Shown in pieces: positions 5,794-50,565 of a stretch of DNA of 64,000 nucleotides; the stretch's first letter is position 1, and every line of letters starts with the position of its first letter. The notes beneath the pieces are model-generated. The model made no database searches and was not told the origin of the DNA. It saw nothing but the letters and a program-made list of their open reading frames with translations. The stretch is from Verrucomicrobiota bacterium. Lineage in GTDB: Bacteria > Verrucomicrobiota > Verrucomicrobiia > Opitutales > UBA953. Both the position numbers and the translations under genes were made by a program. The stretch is taken from positions 6,158 to 70,157 of the forward strand of contig JBEGSF010000005.1 of assembly GCA_041180005.1 (NCBI GenBank), written 5' to 3'.

Positions 5794-6351
5794 TCACATC
5801 AATCCCTGGGCGGGGATGACGGGAGCCGGGGCGGCCGGTGCCGGGGCGGGCTGGCCGGCGGCTTGGGTGGCATCGATCTTCTCGAGCTCCGCCTTGAGCA
5901 TGCCGAGGCCTTCGTCGCGGAGTGCGATCACCTGGCCCTCGAGCTGCGCGCGTTCTTCGTCCGTCTGGGCGTTGCGCATCGCCTCGCCGATCTCCCGGCC
6001 GCGCTTGAAGAGCTCCTGCGTGGCGGGGTTGATCATCCCGTTGCGGAAGGCCTGGCCGAGCTTCTTCTCGTCGCCGCCGGCGAGGTCGAGGGCCATCTTG
6101 CGGGTCTCTTCGCCGAAAGCCTTGTAGCGAGCCTTCGTGGCCTCGTCCATCGGCGGGCGCTTGGCCTGGGTCGGGGCGACGGGCTTAGGCGCCGCGACCT
6201 TGGTCGGCTGCGTGGCCGGCGTCGGAGCGGCGACGACGGGCTTTTCCACCTTGGTGACGTCCTCCAAGTCGGACGGACGGATGAAGCGGGCGATGAGGAA
6301 ACCTACCGCCACGCAGAAGGCGGCGGTGATGGCGACGGAGGTCTTGTTCAT
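5794..6351 (-). CDS. hypothetical membrane-anchored protein (N-terminal TM, Pro/Ala-rich linker, helical C-terminus)
   Basis: 185-aa ORF with an ATG start. TM segment 'VAITAAFCVAVGFLIARF'. No recognisable catalytic motif. Confidence 0.6.
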   Translation of the reverse strand: MNKTSVAITAAFCVAVGFLIARFIRPSDLEDVTKVEKPVVAAPTPATQPTKVAAPKPVAPTQAKRPPMDEATKARYKAFGEETRKMALDLAGGDEKKLGQAFRNGMINPATQELFKRGREIGEAMRNAQTDEERAQLEGQVIALRDEGLGMLKAELEKIDATQAAGQPAPAPAAPAPVIPAQGLM

Positions 6352-37125: not shown

Positions 37126-37587
37126 TCAATCCCTTGGACGCGAAAAACGCAGGTGCCGTCGGAGGGCGGCGCGGAGGGGTTCGGCGATGATCCGGCCGAC
37201 GCATGAGGGGGTGCGGCAGCCGCAGGGGTGGAAGAGGCTTTCCGCCAAGGAAAAGCCGTAATCAAAGGTGATTTCTTCCCCGGCGCGCAGGGGGCGGAGG
37301 CTCGTCAGCCAGGCACCCTCGGCGGGGCCATGCCAGATCAGTTCCGCGTTCGGTTCGCAGGAATGGTTCGCCCAGCGTGCCGGATTGTCGGCGCCGGACC
37401 CGTCGAGCCACAGGCCCTCGGAGACCTCCAGCGCGAAGACTTCCCCGGTCTCAGGGCGGGGCGGCGGCGTGGGGCTTATCGGGCCTCGGTAGGGAGCGAG
37501 ACGTTCGCCGGCCGCGAATTCCCGTCGGGTGAAGAGCCCTTGGCCGGCGATCGCGGACGGACGCGTCTCGACGTCGGTCGCGCTCAT
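37126..37587 (-). CDS. SET-domain protein (putative protein-lysine methyltransferase)
   Basis: 'GQGLFTRREFAAGE', 'RWANHSCEPNAEL', 'GEEITFDYGF' and post-SET 'CGCRTPSCVG'. Confidence 0.85.
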   Translation of the reverse strand: MSATDVETRPSAIAGQGLFTRREFAAGERLAPYRGPISPTPPPRPETGEVFALEVSEGLWLDGSGADNPARWANHSCEPNAELIWHGPAEGAWLTSLRPLRAGEEITFDYGFSLAESLFHPCGCRTPSCVGRIIAEPLRAALRRHLRFSRPRD

Positions 37588-41922: not shown

Positions 41923-42540
41923 TCAGGGGCGCGGCTGGACGATGATCCAGAAGCACCAGAGCCACAGAAGCAGGCCCAGGCAGGCCAGGACGAGGGCGAG
42001 CCCGGACTGGGTCTGGCGGATTTCAGCCAGGCCTTCCTGGTCGAGGGTGCGGCCGATCCGGCGCACGAGGGCGACCGGAAGGAAGCAGCCCAGAGCCGTC
42101 GTGAAGGTGAGCAGGATGAAGAGCGAGATCGGCGGGGTGTCCGGGGCGACGATGTGCCAGGCGTAGACCGCGAGCGCGAACAGCGGAGGCAGCAGGAAGG
42201 TCGAGCCGCACCAGAGATAACCGGCGCGCACGGTGCGTTCGAGGTTCTCGCCGGCGGCCGAGCGGGCGGTGTCGGGCATGAGCCCCGAATGTTCGTCGGC
42301 GACGAAGCCGGGCGGAGGCGGCGGCGCGTCGCCCGCCGAGACTTCGGCGGTGGGCGCGATCACGCGCGTCAGGCCGGCGCCGCGGAGGTAGTCGCGCAAG
42401 GTCATCCAGCGTCCGTCGACTTCGATGTTGTGCAGCAGGCTGATCTCGCCGGCGCGGAGGAGCTCCTGCACGCGGGCGAGCGGGAAGGGGCCGGTCACGG
42501 CGCCTTTCCAGCGGAGTCGGAATGCGTTGGTCGGAGCCAT
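41923..42540 (-). CDS. GYF_2-like N-terminal domain + three TM helices (gene 4 of the GTPase operon)
   Basis: 'FRLRWKGAVTGPFPLARVQELLRAGEISLLHNIEVDGRWMTL' resembles a GYF_2/DUF4339 domain. Three hydrophobic helices lie in the C-terminal half. Confidence 0.7.
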   Translation of the reverse strand: MAPTNAFRLRWKGAVTGPFPLARVQELLRAGEISLLHNIEVDGRWMTLRDYLRGAGLTRVIAPTAEVSAGDAPPPPPGFVADEHSGLMPDTARSAAGENLERTVRAGYLWCGSTFLLPPLFALAVYAWHIVAPDTPPISLFILLTFTTALGCFLPVALVRRIGRTLDQEGLAEIRQTQSGLALVLACLGLLLWLWCFWIIVQPRP

Positions 42541-42542
42541 GA

Positions 42543-45494
42543 TCAGAGGTCGCGCCCTTGGAGCAGGGTCTCCCAGCCGCCGTCGGGCGGATTCAATCCC
42601 TTGGGGATGCCCGCGGCTTCGGCCGCTTCGGCGACGGTGCCCGGGTAGCGCAGGAGGGGCGAGAGCGGCGCGCCGTCGGCGACGCGCTTGGGCAGGCCGT
42701 CCTCGCCGACGCGGAAGAGCACCGCGACCTTGCCGTCGTTATCGAGGCCGTAGAGCGCGCTGCCCTTGGCGGCCTCGCGCAGGCGGGGCGTGCCGTCGCG
42801 TCCGACCATGCCGGCGAAGACCACGCGGCGGGTGCGCAGCTGCGCGAAGGTGGCGCGCCAGAAACGGGCTTCCTCGGCGTAGCCCGCGCCGCCTTGCGGT
42901 ACGAGGAACGCACGGAGTTCGCCCTTCACGTCGGCCCACTTGTCGCGGAAGAGGTAATCGTAGGGCTCGAGGCCGTTCTGCGTGATGCGACGGAGCTGTT
43001 CGGCGTCGCGCTGCGCGCTCGGGGAGAAGATCAGGCCCCAGGCGTCGGGACGGCCGCCGGCGAGCTTGTACAGTTCCTGGAGCTGGAACGCGCGCAGCTC
43101 AGGGTAGGGCGAGTCGCTGCGCCGCACGCGCTCCATCGTGCGCAGCGGTGGCTCGAGGAGGCGGCCGGAGCGCGCGTCCTGGAAACGGGTGACCTGGCGG
43201 ATGAACTCGAGCTCCGGGATGGGGGCGAGCGCGGTGAGCTCTTCGCCGTTGCGGAAGCCGTTGTTGAATTCGCGGCGTCGCCAGGCACCTTCGGCGACGC
43301 TGCCGTCGCGGTTGAGCTCCTTGGCCTTCTGCGTGAATTCGACGCCGTCGTTGAAGGAGTTCTTGGTCTCCGCGACCTCGCCGACGACGTAGACCGAGCG
43401 TCCCGGAGTGACGCCGCGGACCGAGTAGAGGCTGAGCGTCGCGCGGCGCAGGCTGTCGGCGAGCGAGGTGTCCGAGAGGCGACGCAGCAGTCGCTGTTCG
43501 ACCTCGGTCAGCACGGCAGGGTGGAAGACGCCCTGAGGGTCGGCGGTCGCGGCCGCGTCCCACATCGCGGCCACGCGCGGGGCGAGGACGGGGCGGGGCA
43601 GGGCCTGGAGCGACGGGGCGCGCGTGAAGACGAAGGAAGCGCGGGCGCCGAGGTCGGTCTTCTCGCCGGCGGTGTTGGCCGAGGCGTCGGCGAGCGCGGC
43701 GAGGTAGCTGGTGAGGTCGGCCGCGGCCTCCAGCGTGCGGAGGGCGGTGGCGATCTTGCGGTCGCCGGCCAGGCGGATCTCTCCGCGGTCCGCGGCGGCC
43801 GCGGCGGAGTCGAGGTCGCGGTCACCCGCTTCGCCGAGGATCTTCAGCAGCAGGCGGAGGCGTTCGAGGGTCTCCATCGCGCGCACCGGGTCGGCGATCG
43901 CGACGCTGTCGCCGACGGCCTTGTTGAGGGCAGCCGTGCGGACGGCGAGTTCCTGGCGGAGCTTGCCGAGGTGGTTCTGGCTGGCCGCGGCCAGGCCTTC
44001 CGGATCGGGCAGCACGGCCTTGAGCCGCTCGCGCAGCCCCGGTCCGGCTTCGCCGAGGGACTTCAGATAAGCCGCGCTCCGACGGGCGACTTCCGCGACG
44101 TTGCCGTCGGTCACGCCGGACTTGCCGGTCTCGGCGAGCTGGCGGGCTTCGAGGCGGAGCTTCTGTTCCACCGCGATCTGCTGGGCGAGCGTCTCACGCA
44201 ACGGGCGGGCGGCGGCTTTGCGGCGTTCCAGTTCGGCCGCGCCGGAACCCCCGCGTTCGAATTCATCGAGCGCGCGGAGGGCGGCGTCGTGGTCGTAAAG
44301 TTCGACGAGGCGCGTGGCTTCGGAGAAGCGGCCGAGCGTCTCTTCCTCCTGCTGGCGCTGGAGGTTGACGGCGACGACGACGCCCACGATCACGAGGAGG
44401 CCGACGACCCAGGAGGAGGTCAGCAGCAGGTAGCGGCGGTTGAGGCGGGTGCGCGTGGCTTGGCGCAGGGCGCGGGCTTCGCGCAGGAGGCCTTCGGGCA
44501 GCCTTTCGGCGTGAGGCGTCGCGCGTTCGAGCCAGGCGCTCAGGCGCACGATGAGGATCGCGGGCGAGGAACCGCGGGCGGCTTCCTGGCCGAGCACCTG
44601 CCACTCCTCGAGGAGGCTCTCGACGGCGGAGCGGAGGGCGGCTTCGGCTTCGGCGGTCGCGGCGAGTTCGCCGGCCCAGGCTTCGAGCTCGGCCATCTGG
44701 GCGAGCAGTTCGGGCGAAAGGTTCAGCTGGTGGTCGCGTTCCAGCGCGCGCGTGCGGCCGAGGGCCGAGGCGCAGGCTTCCCAGTGGCCTCCGTCACGGG
44801 CCAGCGCGGCTTCGGCGACGAGGCTGATGGCCTGTTCGGCGGCGTTGGCGCGGAGCCAGGCCGCGCGACGGGCACGGGCGTCGTCCCAGCGCGGTTCGCC
44901 GGAAAGGTCGTTCGCGCCGAAGCGCTCCATGCGCTGCATGAGCTCGACGGCCTCGGCCGGGCGGCCTTCGGCGAAGAGCGCGCCGACGCGACCCAGCGAC
45001 TCGCGGAGGAACTTCGCGGACAGGCGGGCGAGTTCGGACTGCGCGTTCGGGTCGTCGGGATTGATGCGGACGATCGAACGCAGCACCGCGAGCGCGCGGT
45101 CTTCGTCGCGGCGGCGGATCGCGTCGCGGTAATCGCGGTAGAGCGGGTGGCTCTCGCCGATGACGCGTCCGTAGAGGCTTTCGACGGCGAGCACGTGCTG
45201 ACCGTCGAGCGGGAAGCCGGCCGGAAGGCCGCGTTCGCGGCAGAGCGCGTGCCAGCGGTCGGATTCCGCGAAGCTCAGCAGGGCGCAGAGGCCGAGGAGA
45301 TCGGGGTCGGCTTCGGCGGCTTGGAAGGCGGCGTGTTCGTTGCCTCCGCGCACGAGCGTGGCGCACTGCTCGAGGCGTTCGCGGGCGCGTACGCACAGCG
45401 CGGCGTATTCGCCGGCCAGCGAGCGGGCTTCGAGATCAGGCGTCCCGAGCTCGAGCTGGCCGCGGATGCGGGCGATGAGGCGTTCGGCCTGCAT
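42543..45494 (-). CDS. 983-aa single-pass membrane protein, helical N-terminal half, unknown function (gene 3 of the GTPase operon)
   Basis: ATG start. One TM 'YLLLTSSWVVGLLVIVGVVVAV' (residues about 355-377). 3-nt gap to the upstream gene and 2-nt gap to the downstream gene. Confidence 0.75.
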   Translation of the reverse strand: MQAERLIARIRGQLELGTPDLEARSLAGEYAALCVRARERLEQCATLVRGGNEHAAFQAAEADPDLLGLCALLSFAESDRWHALCRERGLPAGFPLDGQHVLAVESLYGRVIGESHPLYRDYRDAIRRRDEDRALAVLRSIVRINPDDPNAQSELARLSAKFLRESLGRVGALFAEGRPAEAVELMQRMERFGANDLSGEPRWDDARARRAAWLRANAAEQAISLVAEAALARDGGHWEACASALGRTRALERDHQLNLSPELLAQMAELEAWAGELAATAEAEAALRSAVESLLEEWQVLGQEAARGSSPAILIVRLSAWLERATPHAERLPEGLLREARALRQATRTRLNRRYLLLTSSWVVGLLVIVGVVVAVNLQRQQEEETLGRFSEATRLVELYDHDAALRALDEFERGGSGAAELERRKAAARPLRETLAQQIAVEQKLRLEARQLAETGKSGVTDGNVAEVARRSAAYLKSLGEAGPGLRERLKAVLPDPEGLAAASQNHLGKLRQELAVRTAALNKAVGDSVAIADPVRAMETLERLRLLLKILGEAGDRDLDSAAAAADRGEIRLAGDRKIATALRTLEAAADLTSYLAALADASANTAGEKTDLGARASFVFTRAPSLQALPRPVLAPRVAAMWDAAATADPQGVFHPAVLTEVEQRLLRRLSDTSLADSLRRATLSLYSVRGVTPGRSVYVVGEVAETKNSFNDGVEFTQKAKELNRDGSVAEGAWRRREFNNGFRNGEELTALAPIPELEFIRQVTRFQDARSGRLLEPPLRTMERVRRSDSPYPELRAFQLQELYKLAGGRPDAWGLIFSPSAQRDAEQLRRITQNGLEPYDYLFRDKWADVKGELRAFLVPQGGAGYAEEARFWRATFAQLRTRRVVFAGMVGRDGTPRLREAAKGSALYGLDNDGKVAVLFRVGEDGLPKRVADGAPLSPLLRYPGTVAEAAEAAGIPKGLNPPDGGWETLLQGRDL

Positions 45495-45497
45495 GGA

Positions 45498-47627
45498 TCA
45501 ACGGAATTCAAGCAGACGAGGTCCGGCGGCGCCGCCGGCATCGACGGCCTGCACGACCCAAGGGGCGCCGGCTTCGATGAACCTGCCTTCGCGGAAGGCT
45601 TTGCGGCGGGCGGCGACTTCCTCGTAAGGAGGCGAACCCGGGCCCTGCTTGGACTCGAGACGGAGCAGGTCGGTCTCGAGCAGGGAGCGGGTGGCGCGGA
45701 CGGACGGAAGGTCGCGGTCTGGGAAACTGTGCTCGGCCGGGTAGAGGCCGACCTGGCCGTGGGCCCAGACGAAGGCGTTGACGGCGGACTCGGCCCAAGG
45801 AGCCGGACGGATCACGCCGGTGTCCACGTCGTAGCGGAGCGCGCCGGCGCCGAGGTCGAGCGGGCGCAGCTGGGCGGCGTCGCCGATCAGGGCGAGCACG
45901 CGACGGTCACCCTTGGGCATGATGATCTCGACGAGGACGTTGGCGCTCGGCGCGCCTTCGGCGGCGGTGAAGTTGAGGGATACGACGTTACGGCGGGCGC
46001 CGAGGCCGATGCCGATCGCAGGCAGCTTGCCCGGCTCGGGGTTGGATTCGAACCAGGTCGTCTGCTGGGTCACCCGGATCTCGCCGTTGAGATAAGGCGT
46101 GCGGTCGTCGCGCTGGTGCGGCGTGACCAGCGGCAGCACGCGGAGGCGGATCTGCGCGCTGGTGCGGGACGAGGCGCCCGCTTCCTCGGCCCATTTCGTG
46201 AGACGATCCACCGCGGAGCGAGAGAGGGAGAACTGCGCTTCGATAGGCGACTTCGGTCCGATGTCGGAGAGGTGCCACTGGCCGGGCGCGACGAGGACGG
46301 GGCGGACGTCGAGCGTGGGGAGGCGCAGCGTGCGTTCCTTGATTTCGACGAGCTGCTTCCAGGCGGCGTCTTCGGGGACGTCGAGGAGCTTGCCGACGCG
46401 CATGACCTCGAGGGTCTCGGCGTGCGCGGCCTGGCTGGCCTTCGGGTCGTCGAGGATGTCGCGTCGTTCGATCTTGGCGAGGAGCTGGCGGACGGCACCG
46501 GCGGAGTAACCGTTGAGGATGCGCGGAAGGATCTGCTCCTTGTAGTTGCCGAGGCGGGCAGGGGAGCGCTCGTTGGTCTCAAGCCAGAGGCGCGCGGCGG
46601 GCAGCATGTCGCCCGTCTCGAGCAGGCTCTGGATTTCGGTGACGGCGCGGTTGACCCGGAGGATTTCTTCCTGCTGCGCGAGGTCGGAAGCGGAAGGCGC
46701 TGGAGCGACGTTCGCGACCGGCTTCGGTTCGGGCGCGGGGTCCGGGGAGCGATTCGAGAAGAGGAAGGCGAGGCCGGCGGCGACGACGAGCAGGACGCCG
46801 CCCACGATCCAAGGCGTGGCGGAGCCGCCTTGCGGAGCTGAGGGCGCGGCGCCAGGGCGGCGTGTGACCGCGATCGGCGTGGCCTTCGGAGCAGTCAGTC
46901 CGGCGGCTGCCTGACGGGCGAGGTCGCCGGTCGGCGCAGGCAGCGTGCGCGCTTCGACGAAGTCGATCGTCGCGGGGCGTTCGGCGTGGGCGGCCCAGAC
47001 GAAGCCGGCTTCACCCGTGATCCGGGCGTCGGTCGTGAACGTCGCGTGCCAGGCGGCCTTGCCGATGAGGGCGGAAGATTCGGCGAAGAGCTTCAGCAGC
47101 GTCGCGTTGGCCGGAGGATTGCGTAGGCCCAGCGTGGTCGCGCCGGTCGCGTCGACGAGCCACGCGGCCTTGGCGCCGGTGCCGGTGGTCTCGCGCCACG
47201 TGACGGCGGGGGACAGCGGCGTGGCGGCTTCGAGGGTCAGCGGGCGATTCTCACCTTCGAGCCAGGCGGGGGCTCCGCTCCATTCGGCGAGCCAGCCTTT
47301 CCAGCGGGCGGCCAGGGCGGCGGGCGGAGCGAGGAGGGCGGCCTCTTCGGCGGTGAAGATCAGGTGATGGGCGAGACGGTTGTCGCGTTGCGTGTAATCG
47401 AGGCCGCGGGCGACGAAGCGGGAGAGCACGAACCAATGACGGTCGCCGGCTTCGAGGGTGCGGAAGGTGAACGTCTCTCCTTCGGCCTGCTCGTGCGGCG
47501 TGCCGACGGATTCGAGCAGCTGGGCCAGACGATCCGGCACGGCGCGGTGGCGGGCGACGGTGCAATAGCCCGAACGTCCCGGGGTAAGGCCTTGCGGAGC
47601 GGAGGTGAAGACGAGTTGGAGGGGCAT
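45498..47627 (-). CDS. 709-aa membrane protein with GAP1-N-like N-terminal domain (gene 2 of the GTPase operon)
   Basis: 'MPLQLVFTSAPQGLTPGRSGYCTVA...LDYTQRDNRLAHHLIF'. TM 'PWIVGGVLLVVAAGLAFLF' (about 272-290). The start overlaps the GTPase stop (TGATG). Confidence 0.75.
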   Translation of the reverse strand: MPLQLVFTSAPQGLTPGRSGYCTVARHRAVPDRLAQLLESVGTPHEQAEGETFTFRTLEAGDRHWFVLSRFVARGLDYTQRDNRLAHHLIFTAEEAALLAPPAALAARWKGWLAEWSGAPAWLEGENRPLTLEAATPLSPAVTWRETTGTGAKAAWLVDATGATTLGLRNPPANATLLKLFAESSALIGKAAWHATFTTDARITGEAGFVWAAHAERPATIDFVEARTLPAPTGDLARQAAAGLTAPKATPIAVTRRPGAAPSAPQGGSATPWIVGGVLLVVAAGLAFLFSNRSPDPAPEPKPVANVAPAPSASDLAQQEEILRVNRAVTEIQSLLETGDMLPAARLWLETNERSPARLGNYKEQILPRILNGYSAGAVRQLLAKIERRDILDDPKASQAAHAETLEVMRVGKLLDVPEDAAWKQLVEIKERTLRLPTLDVRPVLVAPGQWHLSDIGPKSPIEAQFSLSRSAVDRLTKWAEEAGASSRTSAQIRLRVLPLVTPHQRDDRTPYLNGEIRVTQQTTWFESNPEPGKLPAIGIGLGARRNVVSLNFTAAEGAPSANVLVEIIMPKGDRRVLALIGDAAQLRPLDLGAGALRYDVDTGVIRPAPWAESAVNAFVWAHGQVGLYPAEHSFPDRDLPSVRATRSLLETDLLRLESKQGPGSPPYEEVAARRKAFREGRFIEAGAPWVVQAVDAGGAAGPRLLEFR

Positions 47628-49354
47628 CAGGAATGGGGGGTCGCGGGGAACATCGCCGGCGAGGACAGGTGCAGCAGCCAGTAGAGGGGCTCCTCCACGT
47701 GGGCCGGAGCGAGGCGCTGCGGATCGGGAGCGATGCGGCCCTTGTTCGGACCGGCCCCGATCATCACCGGCGTGTGGCCGAAGGAGGTCGCGGCGAAGAA
47801 GCAGATCTGGTCGGCGAGGGATTCCGCCGAGGCGACGAGGCCGGGGCAGAGATGGAGCAGGACCTCGCGCACGCGGTCGGAATTGCGGCGGACGGCGGCG
47901 AGGTCCAGCGCGCCGGCGCGGATCACCGGTTCGAGCGGCGAGCTGAGGAGCTTCTCCCAGGTGTCGGACTTGCCGACCACGAAGGCGAGCGGCGTCGCGA
48001 TGCGCTGGTCGTGCGCGAGGCCGAGCACGCGCTTCATGCGCGTCTCCATCTCGGCCAGGATGCTGTCCTGCTGGTCGACGCGGCCCTTGAGCGAGAGCTG
48101 CGGATCGTCGACGCCGACGAGCTTGGCCTTGAAGCGCGCGTTGGCGGTCGGGTCGAAAAGGAAGATCAGGCCGCTGGAGGTCGCGACGTGCATCGCGCCG
48201 GGCGAGTCATGGATGTCGATGCCCGGCTCGAAGTGCTCGCCGGCGTTGTCATACAGGATGACCGACGTATCGAGCGCCGGCTGGCCTGGGCGGCTCAGCG
48301 AATAGATGAACGGACGGGGCAGGGAGACCATGCGGCCGAGGCGCGGGAGCTTCTCGTAGGTCGCGCCTTCGAGGGCCGTCTTGCCGAGCAACGCGTCTTC
48401 CGGCGTCGCCGCGGAGAAGAGCGTGTTGCGCATCTGGTTGAGCAGCATGTTGCCGCTCGGGTCGCCGTCCTTGAACGCCAGCGAGAAGTCCTCGGGCAGG
48501 CGGTCCTGAAGCACGCGCGTGAGCACGGCGAGGTAGTAGGATTTGCCGGCGCTCGGAGCGCCGATGAGCGAGATGATGCGGTGCGGACGCTCGAGGTAGC
48601 CGGGCGGCAGCTGACGGCGGCAGTGCGGGCAGGCGATGTCGGTGCAGGCCAGGCCCATCGGATCGAGGGCGAGCCCTTGGTCGTTGAAGCGCGTGGGCTG
48701 GAAGCGGAGGCGCGCGTCGGAGCCTAGGATCGGATCGCCGCGCAGGTTCTCATGCACCGCGATGCTCAACGCGTCGCCGGCGTCGAAGCGCGTCCAGCAG
48801 ACCGGGCACACGTGCGCGCCTCGGTTCTGTTCGGCGGCGAGGAGCGCCGTGTTCTGCGGGCGGACCTCCGTTTCTTCCGGAGGGGAGAGGAGCGGAGCGA
48901 TCTGCGCGAGGTTGAAGCCGACCTCGAGGCCGACGGGCGTGCAGGCGAGCGCTTCGGTGGGCAGGCCGGAGCGGGCGGCCGCGGCGAGGAGTTCCGTCGC
49001 CGGATGCTCGCCGAGCTGGTCGCCGGTGCGGGCGTCGAAGAGCACCCAGAGGTCGGTCCGGATGAAGGCGAAATCCTGCTGAGCGCGGGGGGCCACGACG
49101 AGCAAGGCGGAGGGTAGCTGGACGGTCGTCGGTTCGGTGACCGCGAGACGCTGGCTCAGCGGGGCGCCGTTCACCAAGGCCACGCCGGCGCCGGAGGGCT
49201 CGAGGCCGACGGTCTCTCCCGCCGGGACGAGGGACAGGGCGGGTTGGGGCGCGTCGCCCGGGAGGGCGGCCGGCAGCTCAGCGGTGAAGCCTTTTTCGCC
49301 GCTGAGGCAATTGACCCAGGAGAGGGTGGGGGTTTTCTTGCGGGTCGTGAACAT
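47627..49354 (-). CDS. Zn-ribbon-containing P-loop GTPase (TRAFAC-type motifs), gene 1 of the operon
   Basis: CPVC (183-186) and CPHC (242-245). Walker A 'GAPSAGKS' (265-272), 'DNAGE' (369-373) and 'GKSD' (461-464). Confidence 0.8.
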   Translation of the reverse strand: MFTTRKKTPTLSWVNCLSGEKGFTAELPAALPGDAPQPALSLVPAGETVGLEPSGAGVALVNGAPLSQRLAVTEPTTVQLPSALLVVAPRAQQDFAFIRTDLWVLFDARTGDQLGEHPATELLAAAARSGLPTEALACTPVGLEVGFNLAQIAPLLSPPEETEVRPQNTALLAAEQNRGAHVCPVCWTRFDAGDALSIAVHENLRGDPILGSDARLRFQPTRFNDQGLALDPMGLACTDIACPHCRRQLPPGYLERPHRIISLIGAPSAGKSYYLAVLTRVLQDRLPEDFSLAFKDGDPSGNMLLNQMRNTLFSAATPEDALLGKTALEGATYEKLPRLGRMVSLPRPFIYSLSRPGQPALDTSVILYDNAGEHFEPGIDIHDSPGAMHVATSSGLIFLFDPTANARFKAKLVGVDDPQLSLKGRVDQQDSILAEMETRMKRVLGLAHDQRIATPLAFVVGKSDTWEKLLSSPLEPVIRAGALDLAAVRRNSDRVREVLLHLCPGLVASAESLADQICFFAATSFGHTPVMIGAGPNKGRIAPDPQRLAPAHVEEPLYWLLHLSSPAMFPATPHS

Positions 49355-49411: not shown

Positions 49412-50059
49412 ATGTCACCACGATTATGGGTCGACTCCGACCTGTTTTCCTCTACCCAACCCGTACCCATGGAGACCGAAGCCGACCAGTCCGCCTTGGA
49501 CCGAGCCCGCCAGGGGGATCTGTCGGCCTACAACGAGCTGGTCCTCAAGTATCAGGGTCGCATCTTCGCCAAGGTCTTTTCGCTGCTCCGTAACCGTCAG
49601 GACGCCGAGGAAATCACCCAGGACACGTTCATCCGGGCCCATCGGGTCCTGGCTTCTTTCCGCGGAACCGCCACTTTCTCGACCTGGATCCACCAGATCG
49701 GCACCAATCTCGCCCGCAATCGCTACTGGTACTGGCGCCGCCGCAAGCGTGACCAGTCCATGTCCCTCGACGCCGACCTCGGCGACGACCCCGGCGCGAC
49801 CCTGCACGACATCCTTTCGGACGGCGCCCAAGGCCCCGGCCATGAGGCCCAGCATAACGAATTCGTCCACAAAGTGGCCGAGTGCATGGAACAATTGAAG
49901 CCGGAACACGCTCGTATCCTGACGATGCGCAACGTCCGCAACATGTCGTATGAAGAGATCGCCGAAGACCTCGGCCTCTCGATCGGCACGGTCAAGAGCC
50001 GCATCAACCGCGCCCGCGAAGCCCTGCGCGAACTCATGGGAGAGGAGTTCCGAGGATGA
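49412..50059 (+). CDS. ECF-type RNA polymerase sigma factor
   Basis: Region 2 'YNELVLKYQGRIFAKVFSLLRNRQDAEEITQDTFIRA' and region 4 'MSYEEIAEDLGLSIGTVKSRINRAR'. An alternative ATG lies at 49469. Confidence 0.88.
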   Translation: MSPRLWVDSDLFSSTQPVPMETEADQSALDRARQGDLSAYNELVLKYQGRIFAKVFSLLRNRQDAEEITQDTFIRAHRVLASFRGTATFSTWIHQIGTNLARNRYWYWRRRKRDQSMSLDADLGDDPGATLHDILSDGAQGPGHEAQHNEFVHKVAECMEQLKPEHARILTMRNVRNMSYEEIAEDLGLSIGTVKSRINRAREALRELMGEEFRG

Positions 50060-50565
50060 GCGCCGCCGAGTTCGAATCCCTCGTCGCCCTTTTCCTGGAA
50101 GGCAACGCCTCCCCTGAGCAGGTCGCCCGTCTCCGCGCCGCCCTCAGCGCCTCTCCGGCCCTGCGCGCCCGCTTCCAAGCCAGCGCCCGCCTGCACAAGG
50201 CCCAGCTCGCCTGCCTCAGCCATCGCGAAGAGCGTTCGGCGGCCGGCGTGATGTCCTGGCTGCACGCCTATGGCCAGCGCATGGGACGTTCGTTCGCCCA
50301 TCTCTGCCTGCTCGCCCTCGTCTTCGTCGAACTGCAGGTGACCATCCCGGTCGAGTATTCCGGTTTGCTCGCCTACGTCGAAGCGCAGGTGCCCGCCGAA
50401 GAACCCGTCCTGGGTTCGGCCGAGATGCCGACCCGCCTGATCACGGACATCGTCCAAGAGGCGGATCTTTCGCAGGCCGTCGAAGTCCCCGAGCTCACCA
50501 TGCCCGTCCTCGTCATGCCCGAGATGGTCATGCCGACCGATGAGCCCGCGGCCATCGAGGTCTGA
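50056..50565 (+). CDS. putative anti-sigma factor
   Basis: ATGA overlap with the sigma gene. The N-terminal 'FESLVALFLEGNASPEQVARLRAAL' resembles an anti-sigma N-terminal helix. One hydrophobic segment. Confidence 0.6.
   Translation: MSAAEFESLVALFLEGNASPEQVARLRAALSASPALRARFQASARLHKAQLACLSHREERSAAGVMSWLHAYGQRMGRSFAHLCLLALVFVELQVTIPVEYSGLLAYVEAQVPAEEPVLGSAEMPTRLITDIVQEADLSQAVEVPELTMPVLVMPEMVMPTDEPAAIEV

Follow-up and report, generated by a model that had tools for sequence, protein, structure and literature searches.

The 64,000-nucleotide stretch of DNA analysed in this study (the window; positions 6,158 to 70,157 of the forward strand of contig JBEGSF010000005.1, GenBank assembly GCA_041180005.1) belongs to a Verrucomicrobiota bacterium of the order Opitutales and possesses, on its minus strand, a four-gene operon whose first gene codes for a 575-residue GTPase of the DO-GTPase2 type. 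In this protein, an FHA-like domain, a probable GYF-like domain, a short linker, a predicted Zn module and a G domain follow one another from the N-terminus, and its gene is translationally coupled to a downstream gene for a GAP1-N2 protein. With a probability of about 0.85, we regard the GTPase as the cytosolic subunit that acts as a GTP-driven switch in a DO-GTPase/GAP1-N2 system of four proteins anchored in the inner membrane.

Features of the GTPase gene

The open reading frame starts with ATG, preceded by AGGAG at a distance of ~5 nucleotides, and no transmembrane segment was predicted in the 575-residue product. A genome search found the gene in a single copy in the 2.57-Mb genome, which is 96% complete. 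The features within the gene are listed below, with the evidence for each in parentheses.

47627..49354, minus: DO-GTPase2-type GTPase gene, 575 amino acids, cytosolic (open reading frame, absence of predicted transmembrane segments)
49070..49327, minus: degenerate FHA-like beta-sandwich, residues 10–95, NG kept, GR and SxxH lost (hhalign, Pfam matches of paralogues)
48875..49063, minus: probable GYF_2-like domain, residues 98–160, beta-beta-alpha-beta-alpha (hhalign, Foldseek, paralogues)
48605..48814, minus: predicted Zn module, residues 181–250 (motifs, conservation, model)
48797..48808, minus: CPVC knuckle with C183 and C186 (motif script)
48620..48631, minus: CPHC knuckle with C242 and C245 (motif script)
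47645..48583, minus: TRAFAC GTPase domain, DO-GTPase2-like, residues 258–570 (Foldseek and Pfam)
48539..48562, minus: Walker A or G1 motif, GAPSAGKS, residues 265–272 (motif script, family conservation)
48377..48382, minus: K325-T326, near-invariant, candidate G2 or switch-I threonine (family alignment; the G2 role is putative)
48236..48262, minus: Walker B or G3 motif, VILYDNAGE, residues 365–373, with the family-defining E373 (motif, alignment, family description)
47963..47980, minus: G4 motif, VVGKSD, residues 459–464, with the family-invariant K462 and D464 (motif, alignment)

The initial annotation of this DNA, made from the sequence alone, had described two CxxC pairs (C183-x2-C186 and C242-x2-C245) separated by about 55 residues, a Walker A motif 20 residues past the second pair and a G4 motif that reads GKSD and lacks the canonical Asn. 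A motif script located CPVC and CPHC with 55 residues between C186 and C242, placed G265 20 residues after C245 and found VVGKSD at residues 459–464, so that each of these readings stands.

Family-wide conservation of the Cys pairs and nucleotide-binding motifs

A phmmer search of 1.84 billion cluster representatives yielded 1,358 relatives of the GTPase, 378 of which were found at E ≤ 1e-30. The family alignment used throughout consists of the query and 149 relatives (150 representatives in all, from clustering at ~50% identity or lower); the relatives are 27–53% identical to the query, with the exception of one 174-residue N-terminal fragment (82%). The four Cys residues are kept in 138/140, 138/140, 144/145 and 142/145 aligned sequences, respectively, the spacer between the two pairs is 55 residues long (range, 53–64), and C245 and G265 are separated by 19 residues in all 142 cases. 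The four-Cys element that had been noticed directly before the P-loop is thus real and conserved across the family representatives.

The nucleotide-binding motifs are conserved to a similar extent. G265, G270 and K271 are invariant across the alignment, the Walker B consensus is Y-D-N-A-G-E, with the Glu present in 142 of 148 representatives, and G4 follows the pattern [G/S/T/A/P]-K-x-D, in which the Lys is kept by 146/146 sequences and the Asp by 145/147. Gly is the commonest residue at the first G4 position (71/146), followed by Ser, Thr, Ala and Pro. Judging from this alignment, GKxD is the family norm and no oddity of the studied gene, and the Cys residues, their spacing, the Walker motifs and G4 are selected family traits, far beyond what chance would produce. 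Most relatives align from about residue 180 onward, and the stretch before the first CxxC varies between 0 and 459 residues; therefore, what is conserved as a unit comprises the Zn module and the G domain, while the N-terminal part is variable. The architecture, which had initially been regarded as atypical for a GTPase, turned out to be the standard build of the published DO-GTPase/GAP1-N2 systems, in which N-terminal zinc ribbons are usual.

Family assignment and fold of the G domain

The best Pfam family for the GTPase is DO-GTPase2 (PF19993), which scores 23, 24.7 or 26 bits depending on the fragment used, and an NCBIfam search assigned no family to the protein. In a set of 66 diverse homologues, DO-GTPase2 was matched by 47 at E ≤ 1e-3 (best value, 2.3e-9). 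Fusions were also seen in this set: with GAP1-N2 and GAP1-M in one homologue, with an FGE-sulfatase domain in another and with a protein kinase in a third. The Walker-B Glu that characterizes DO-GTPases is present (D369-N-A-G-E373). By transitive homology and gene context, the studied protein is assigned to a divergent branch of DO-GTPase2.

An AlphaFold2 model built from the 150-sequence alignment has a mean predicted local distance difference test score (pLDDT) of 93.7 and a predicted TM-score of 0.79. When this model was compared with the PDB by Foldseek, all of the top 50 matches were TRAFAC GTPases, including EF1A/EF-Tu, M-Ras, Arf/Arl, GBP1, atlastin, G-alpha, SR-beta and Rab, although they are scattered over many TRAFAC families with TM-scores of 0.2–0.27 relative to the query. 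At the sequence level, phmmer found nothing meaningful for the GTPase among PDB sequences, and the family profile retrieved Der/EngA alone, weakly. The domain has the TRAFAC fold, as the initial annotation had supposed when it named a grouping with KAP or AAA ATPases as the alternative outcome, and no such ATPase appeared among the 50 structures; the KAP/AAA reading was dropped on this fold evidence. An ATPase of any other P-loop class (KAP, AAA+, STAND or kinase) without TRAFAC identity is very unlikely, since weak P-loop-only Pfam matches to a nucleotide-kinase family and the missing Asn of G4 stand against an exclusively GTPase-type set of structural matches, the retrieval of Der/EngA in the profile search, the invariant Lys and Asp of xKxD, a near-invariant KT before the Walker-B strand and the presence of DxxG.

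The predicted Zn module

The predicted Zn module consists of two CPxC knuckles around a conserved all-beta insert of 55 residues, which contains the invariant residues D207, R217 and F218 as well as H201 and D231, each conserved in at least 94% of the family alignment. The model has pLDDT values of 96–98 across the module and places both knuckles between short strands. Foldseek found no counterpart of this fold in the PDB or BFVD. The Yippee-like domain of Mis18 (rank 19, probability 0.07), which would have pointed to a Zn fold of the beta-tent type, was dropped as unsupported. As a separate observation, R217 of the module is a candidate for a regulatory or catalytic arginine.

The conservation of the four Cys residues and their joint loss favour a single Cys4 Zn site, which we consider likely. 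Only four sequences have lost any Cys, and in two of these three of the four ligands are missing, so that both pairs are hit. Besides the Cys residues, ligand-type residues occur at H201 (136/145), C237 (110/145) and H246 (91/145). An arrangement in which the pairs do not share one Zn, i.e., two sites completed by other ligands, disulfides or no metal at all, would accommodate the partial conservation of these three residues and a spacer far longer than that of classical zinc ribbons. This arrangement is nevertheless improbable: two separate four-ligand sites cannot be filled because H201 is the sole additional ligand-type residue conserved in at least 90% of the sequences, both motifs have the form of CPxC knuckles flanked by short, confidently modelled strands, and Cys loss has affected both pairs together in two of the four sequences concerned. 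Disulfides are further disfavoured by the cytosolic nature of the protein, which has neither a transmembrane segment nor a signal sequence.

N-terminal FHA-like and probable GYF-like domains

The region before the Zn module had been described as an unknown N-domain. This description holds insofar as Pfam gave no match for residues 1–180, even at E = 10, and a search of the ESM Atlas with residues 1–262 returned its own cluster alone and no structure; it does not hold at the level of profile comparison, by which the region resolves into an FHA-like and a GYF-like part. When 83 aligned N-terminal extensions of homologues were scanned singly with Pfam, FHA was found in 27 (best E, 9e-19) and GYF_2 in 17 (best E, 4e-14). 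The nearest relatives of the N-domain show a weak FHA match at residues ~30–87, at about the gathering threshold, and hhalign aligned the profile of the first 100 residues of the subfamily with that of FHA-type paralogues over 84 columns (probability 96.7%, E = 4e-10). The AlphaFold2 model is all-beta in this region. In the target subfamily, the segment carrying the phosphothreonine-binding motifs GR and SxxH is deleted or replaced and NG alone is kept, the canonical motifs being confined to distant paralogues. On this profile evidence, residues 10–95 can be assigned firmly as a degenerate FHA domain homologous to PF00498.

A resemblance of residues of about 100–150 to a GYF_2-type unit, which had been put forward as speculation, was moderately borne out. 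Broad profiles (142 vs. 29 sequences) aligned GYF_2 with residues 98–160 at a probability of 88.5% (hhalign, E = 2.7e-6), and the alignment falls in the expected W...G..GP...L...G register. A separate model of residues 98–262 (pLDDT 91.9) contains a beta-beta-alpha-beta-alpha unit, and six of its top nine Foldseek matches among 350,542 PDB chains are GYF domains, including those of GIGYF2, GltJ, GIGYF1, Smy2 and an Arabidopsis protein, with TM-scores to the target of 0.42–0.54 and E-values of 0.16–1.3; such weak E-values are expected because the domain is just 60 residues long. In addition, the paralogues P0185 and P0202 possess canonical FHA and GYF_2 domains at matching positions before the same Zn module. 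Residues 98–160 are thus probably a GYF-like domain.

The residues of the GYF ligand pocket are not kept in this domain, where G115-E116 replaces GP and F147 replaces the C-terminal Trp, while intermediate relatives retain GP and GF. If this loss is combined with the empty Pfam result for the region, the lack of BLASTP similarity between the N-domain and the gene-4 protein of the operon, a narrow profile–profile comparison with GYF_2 that reached a probability of 1%, the above Foldseek E-values and iterated hidden Markov model searches, in which canonical GYF_2 and the target-type domain never recruited each other, residues 98–160 could be taken for an unrelated small alpha/beta domain with a coincidental likeness to GYF. 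We regard such a coincidence as unlikely in view of the broad-profile match in the expected register, the predominance of GYF domains among the top PDB matches, and P0185 and P0202.

The N-terminal region of the family is modular, as seen in P0129 (L011:4716–5951, at a metagenomic locus described below), P0185, P0202, P0216 and P0217: the variants comprise a direct start at the Zn module, canonical FHA plus GYF_2, and one or two extra compact CxxC-x17–20-CxxC ribbons.

Operon partners and inheritance

Downstream of the GTPase gene, three genes on the same strand complete the tightly spaced operon.

45498..47627, minus: gene 2 (P0002), GAP1-N2 protein, 709 amino acids (Pfam, transmembrane prediction, junction sequence)
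42543..45494, minus: third gene (P0003), 983 amino acids (open reading frame, transmembrane prediction, Pfam)
41923..42540, minus: fourth gene, 205 amino acids, GYF_2-like N-domain, Pro-rich linker and three transmembrane segments (transmembrane prediction, orthologue annotation)

The start codon of gene 2 overlaps the stop codon of the GTPase gene (TGATG). Its product matches Pfam GAP1-N2 above the cut-off (E = 1.6e-16, 64 bits), is the sole copy in the genome, and is composed of a cytosolic N-domain, a transmembrane segment at residues 273–291 and a C-terminal part of ~420 residues predicted to be extracytoplasmic. The third protein has a helical, weakly TPR-like N-terminal part, a transmembrane segment at residues 356–374 and a 600-residue C-terminal part; no family could be assigned to it, and none of the best 120 of 156 homologues of the C-terminal part carries a Pfam domain. 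The parts following the transmembrane segments were called extracytoplasmic from hydropathy alone. The length of the third protein is fixed within the genus (970–987 residues). PADLOC-DB 2.0 gave no match for any of the four operon proteins.

The orthologue of gene 4 at the metagenomic locus L011 has a weak GYF_2 annotation. In the gene-4 protein of the window, the linker that joins the GYF-like domain to the transmembrane region contains a PPPPPGF run (residues 73–79; 42304–42324, minus). The strict PPG-hydrophobic GYF ligand motif is found in this linker in the window only; PPPG(A) or NPPGG occurs in ~10 of 16 gene-4 orthologues, and nothing of the kind in the rest. The Pro-rich linker as a GYF ligand is thus a weak lead.

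Within the genus, 23 of 24 genomes possess the GTPase gene, at 66–94% identity; of the 16 other families of the order, 3 have it. Close homologues come from metagenome-assembled genomes of Opitutales and Verrucomicrobiota. At every locus of the genus with enough flanking sequence, the four genes have the same order, with rsfS and lpxI downstream. L011 carries the same operon with a 55%-identical homologue of the GTPase that lacks the whole N-domain, and GAP1-N2 lies downstream of the GTPase as in the window. The whole operon is vertically inherited at one locus.

The rate of divergence differs among the parts of the operon. Within the genus, the Zn module evolves more slowly than any other part of the operon: its mean identity to the window is 0.94, compared with 0.85 in the G domain, 0.60 in the GYF-like domain and 0.47 in the FHA-like domain. 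For the partners, the mean identity is 0.78 in GAP1-N2, 0.73 in the N-terminal part of the third protein and 0.50–0.53 in the regions following the transmembrane segments.

Several observations concern the surroundings. In the genus, whose genomes measure 1.3–2.5 Mb (G001–G024), the operon (41923–49354) is near-universal and syntenic, and rsfS, lpxI and panB flank it. Divergently oriented genes for an extracytoplasmic function (ECF) sigma factor and a zf-HC2 anti-sigma factor (49412–50565, plus) lie 57 bp from the start of the GTPase gene. This pair is kept in 7/7 genus genomes tested, in G026, which belongs to another family (42% identity), and at L011, whereas in G025 and G028 no such pair occurs within 2 kb. 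A SET-domain gene, pointed out in the initial annotation, is located ~4.3 kb from the operon in the window (37126–37587), and another ~4 kb from the operon at L011 (L011:101–595); the presence of a SET gene near both operons may reflect conserved wider synteny.

Proposed function and alternative roles

We propose the following course of action for the GTPase as the switch of the four-protein system. The invariant Lys and Asp of xKxD would confer guanine specificity, and E373 and T326 would participate in hydrolysis and switching. The two CPxC knuckles most likely share one Zn around the conserved 55-residue insert, and the Zn module, being the most constrained part and lying at a fixed distance from the P-loop, probably provides a surface for GAP1-N2 or for dimerization of the GTPase; in this way, the state of the bound nucleotide would be relayed to the membrane partners. 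The FHA-like and GYF-like domains, which evolve fast, are probably adaptors, the latter likely binding Pro-rich segments, e.g., the PPPPPGF linker of the fourth protein. Proteins 2 and 3 would receive signals through their variable parts, predicted to be extracytoplasmic, and these signals would be passed on as a GTP-dependent conformational change.

Some points weigh against this proposal. The GTPase scores below the Pfam gathering threshold of DO-GTPase2 (23–26 vs. 27 bits), and only two fragments of the model align to it. The genome has one such GTPase gene and no paralogous pair, and Pfam scans recognized no FNIII-repeat protein or effector domain in the operon. We found no experimental characterization of any family member in the literature searched, and Zn binding, nucleotide specificity and all protein contacts are what we infer.

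As for the physiological role, the operon may be a regulated biological-conflict system directed against phages or other invaders, in which the variable, predicted extracytoplasmic parts would detect the invader and the GTPase would allow an effector to act. Kaur et al. (2020; PMC7159879) predicted such systems at the family level and tied GAP1-N2 systems to a multicellular habit. The juxtaposition of a constant core and variable, sensor-like parts (0.94/0.85/0.78 vs. ~0.5 identity) is in line with that paper's idea of a constant core combined with a variable sensor, and the homologues fused to FGE-sulfatase-type and kinase domains agree with it as well. However, no effector or toxin domain was recognized, PADLOC matches are zero, and the occurrence in 23/24 genomes of a genus with 1.3–2.5-Mb genomes, at one fixed locus amid housekeeping genes, is unusual for defence islands. 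A conflict role is therefore conceivable, and we rate its chance as somewhat below even.

Alternatively, the operon may be a housekeeping GTPase machine for envelope signalling or organization, perhaps wired to the ECF sigma/anti-sigma pair, in which zinc ribbon and GYF modules work as in the GltJ/MglA pair of Myxococcus. The core-like, vertically inherited operon, the divergent ECF pair kept in all seven genus genomes tested as well as in G026 and L011, and the fact that all three partners are membrane proteins speak for this role; GltJ offers an experimental precedent in which zinc ribbon and GYF modules cooperate with a small GTPase, and the GYF domain of GltJ ranks near the top of the structural matches. 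On the other hand, the evidence comes purely from context, G025 and G028 have no ECF pair within 2 kb, and the zinc ribbon of GltJ is compact and belongs to a protein other than the one with the G domain. We give the envelope role close to an even chance. The fixed locus, the near-universal presence, the lack of an effector and the absence of PADLOC matches suggest that a housekeeping envelope role fits at least as well as defence.

A more specific picture, which is speculative and which we regard as rather unlikely in its entirety, is that small-genome freshwater Opitutales maintain the operon as a vertically inherited, ECF-sigma-linked envelope machine and not as a defence island. With its built-in Zn module and GYF-type adaptor, the GTPase would organize the three membrane proteins in a GltJ/MglA-like manner. 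The Zn module, 70 residues long, would have a new fold and would either offer a docking surface that depends on the nucleotide state or contribute the invariant R217 as an arginine with a catalytic or regulatory function.

DO-GTPase/GAP1 systems are widespread (>1,300 clusters at 50% identity from one query) and known from one computational study. The locus described here represents a compact, four-gene, single-GTPase version with a very confident model and a map of constant and variable parts, the constant ones being the Zn module, the G domain and GAP1-N2. It suggests that at least one branch of the predicted conflict system may be a core envelope function. Its value lies in annotation and in the choice of a test case, not in a new principle.

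Comparison with known systems

Large TRAFAC GTPases with a non-Asn G4 include dynamin (TKxD) and septin (AKAD). The studied GTPase resembles them in that the Lys and Asp of xKxD are retained and the first position is variable, although no specific relationship was found.

A classical zinc ribbon holds one Zn with two CPxC knuckles that lie on two beta-hairpins. The predicted Zn module likewise has two CPxC knuckles flanked by short strands, but they are separated by the 55-residue conserved beta insert, whereas ~10–25 residues lie between those of the classical ribbon. Paralogues of the studied GTPase bear additional compact CxxC-x17–20-CxxC ribbons further upstream.

GltJ uses zinc ribbon and GYF modules together with the GTPase MglA in the gliding motility of Myxococcus (Attia et al., Sci Adv 2024; PMC11135422). 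Pro-rich peptides are the ligands of GYF domains, and binding to AglZ was shown for that of GltJ (PMC11135422). The common features would be zinc-ribbon and GYF domains working with a Ras-like GTPase at the inner membrane, and the structure of the GltJ GYF domain (7z3c) is the second-best structural match to residues 98–160. The systems differ in that GltJ, a membrane protein, carries both modules and reads a GTPase encoded apart from them, whereas in the studied protein they form part of the GTPase itself, and in that the zinc ribbon of GltJ is compact; the demonstrated likeness to GltJ is that of the GYF fold.

The closest counterparts are the systems described by Kaur et al. (2020), which consist of TRAFAC GTPases with a Walker-B Glu and usually N-terminal zinc ribbons, and of GAP1 encoded downstream (PMC7159879). 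N-terminal zinc ribbons occur in 60% of DO-GTPases and are usual in the GAP1-N2 type; this "GTPase-centric system" frequently includes membrane components, Verrucomicrobia are among its carrier phyla, and in planctomycetes a linked gene encodes GYF domains fused to a transmembrane-rich region. A paralogous pair of GTPase genes, from which the name derives, is found in 38% of the systems and is not obligatory (PMC7159879). The studied locus shares with them the TRAFAC G domain, the Walker-B Glu, the N-terminal Cys knuckles, a GAP1-N2 gene directly downstream, membrane-anchored partners, a gene for GYF and transmembrane regions in the operon and a listed phylum; by its gene content and predicted domains, it matches the published planctomycete/verrucomicrobial type of GAP1-N2 operon.

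It differs from them in several respects. The GTPase lies under the Pfam threshold and is single rather than paired, FHA-like and GYF-like domains are fused to it, a fusion on which the main text of that paper is silent, neither the FNIII-repeat component that its description leads one to expect nor an effector component was recognized, and the system is core-like in a small-genome genus, for which a planktonic life is presumed, in contrast to the multicellular link drawn in the paper. The family kind was thus already known from computation, and to this the present locus makes modest additions: the fusion of FHA-like and GYF-like domains, the ECF linkage and the core-like inheritance.

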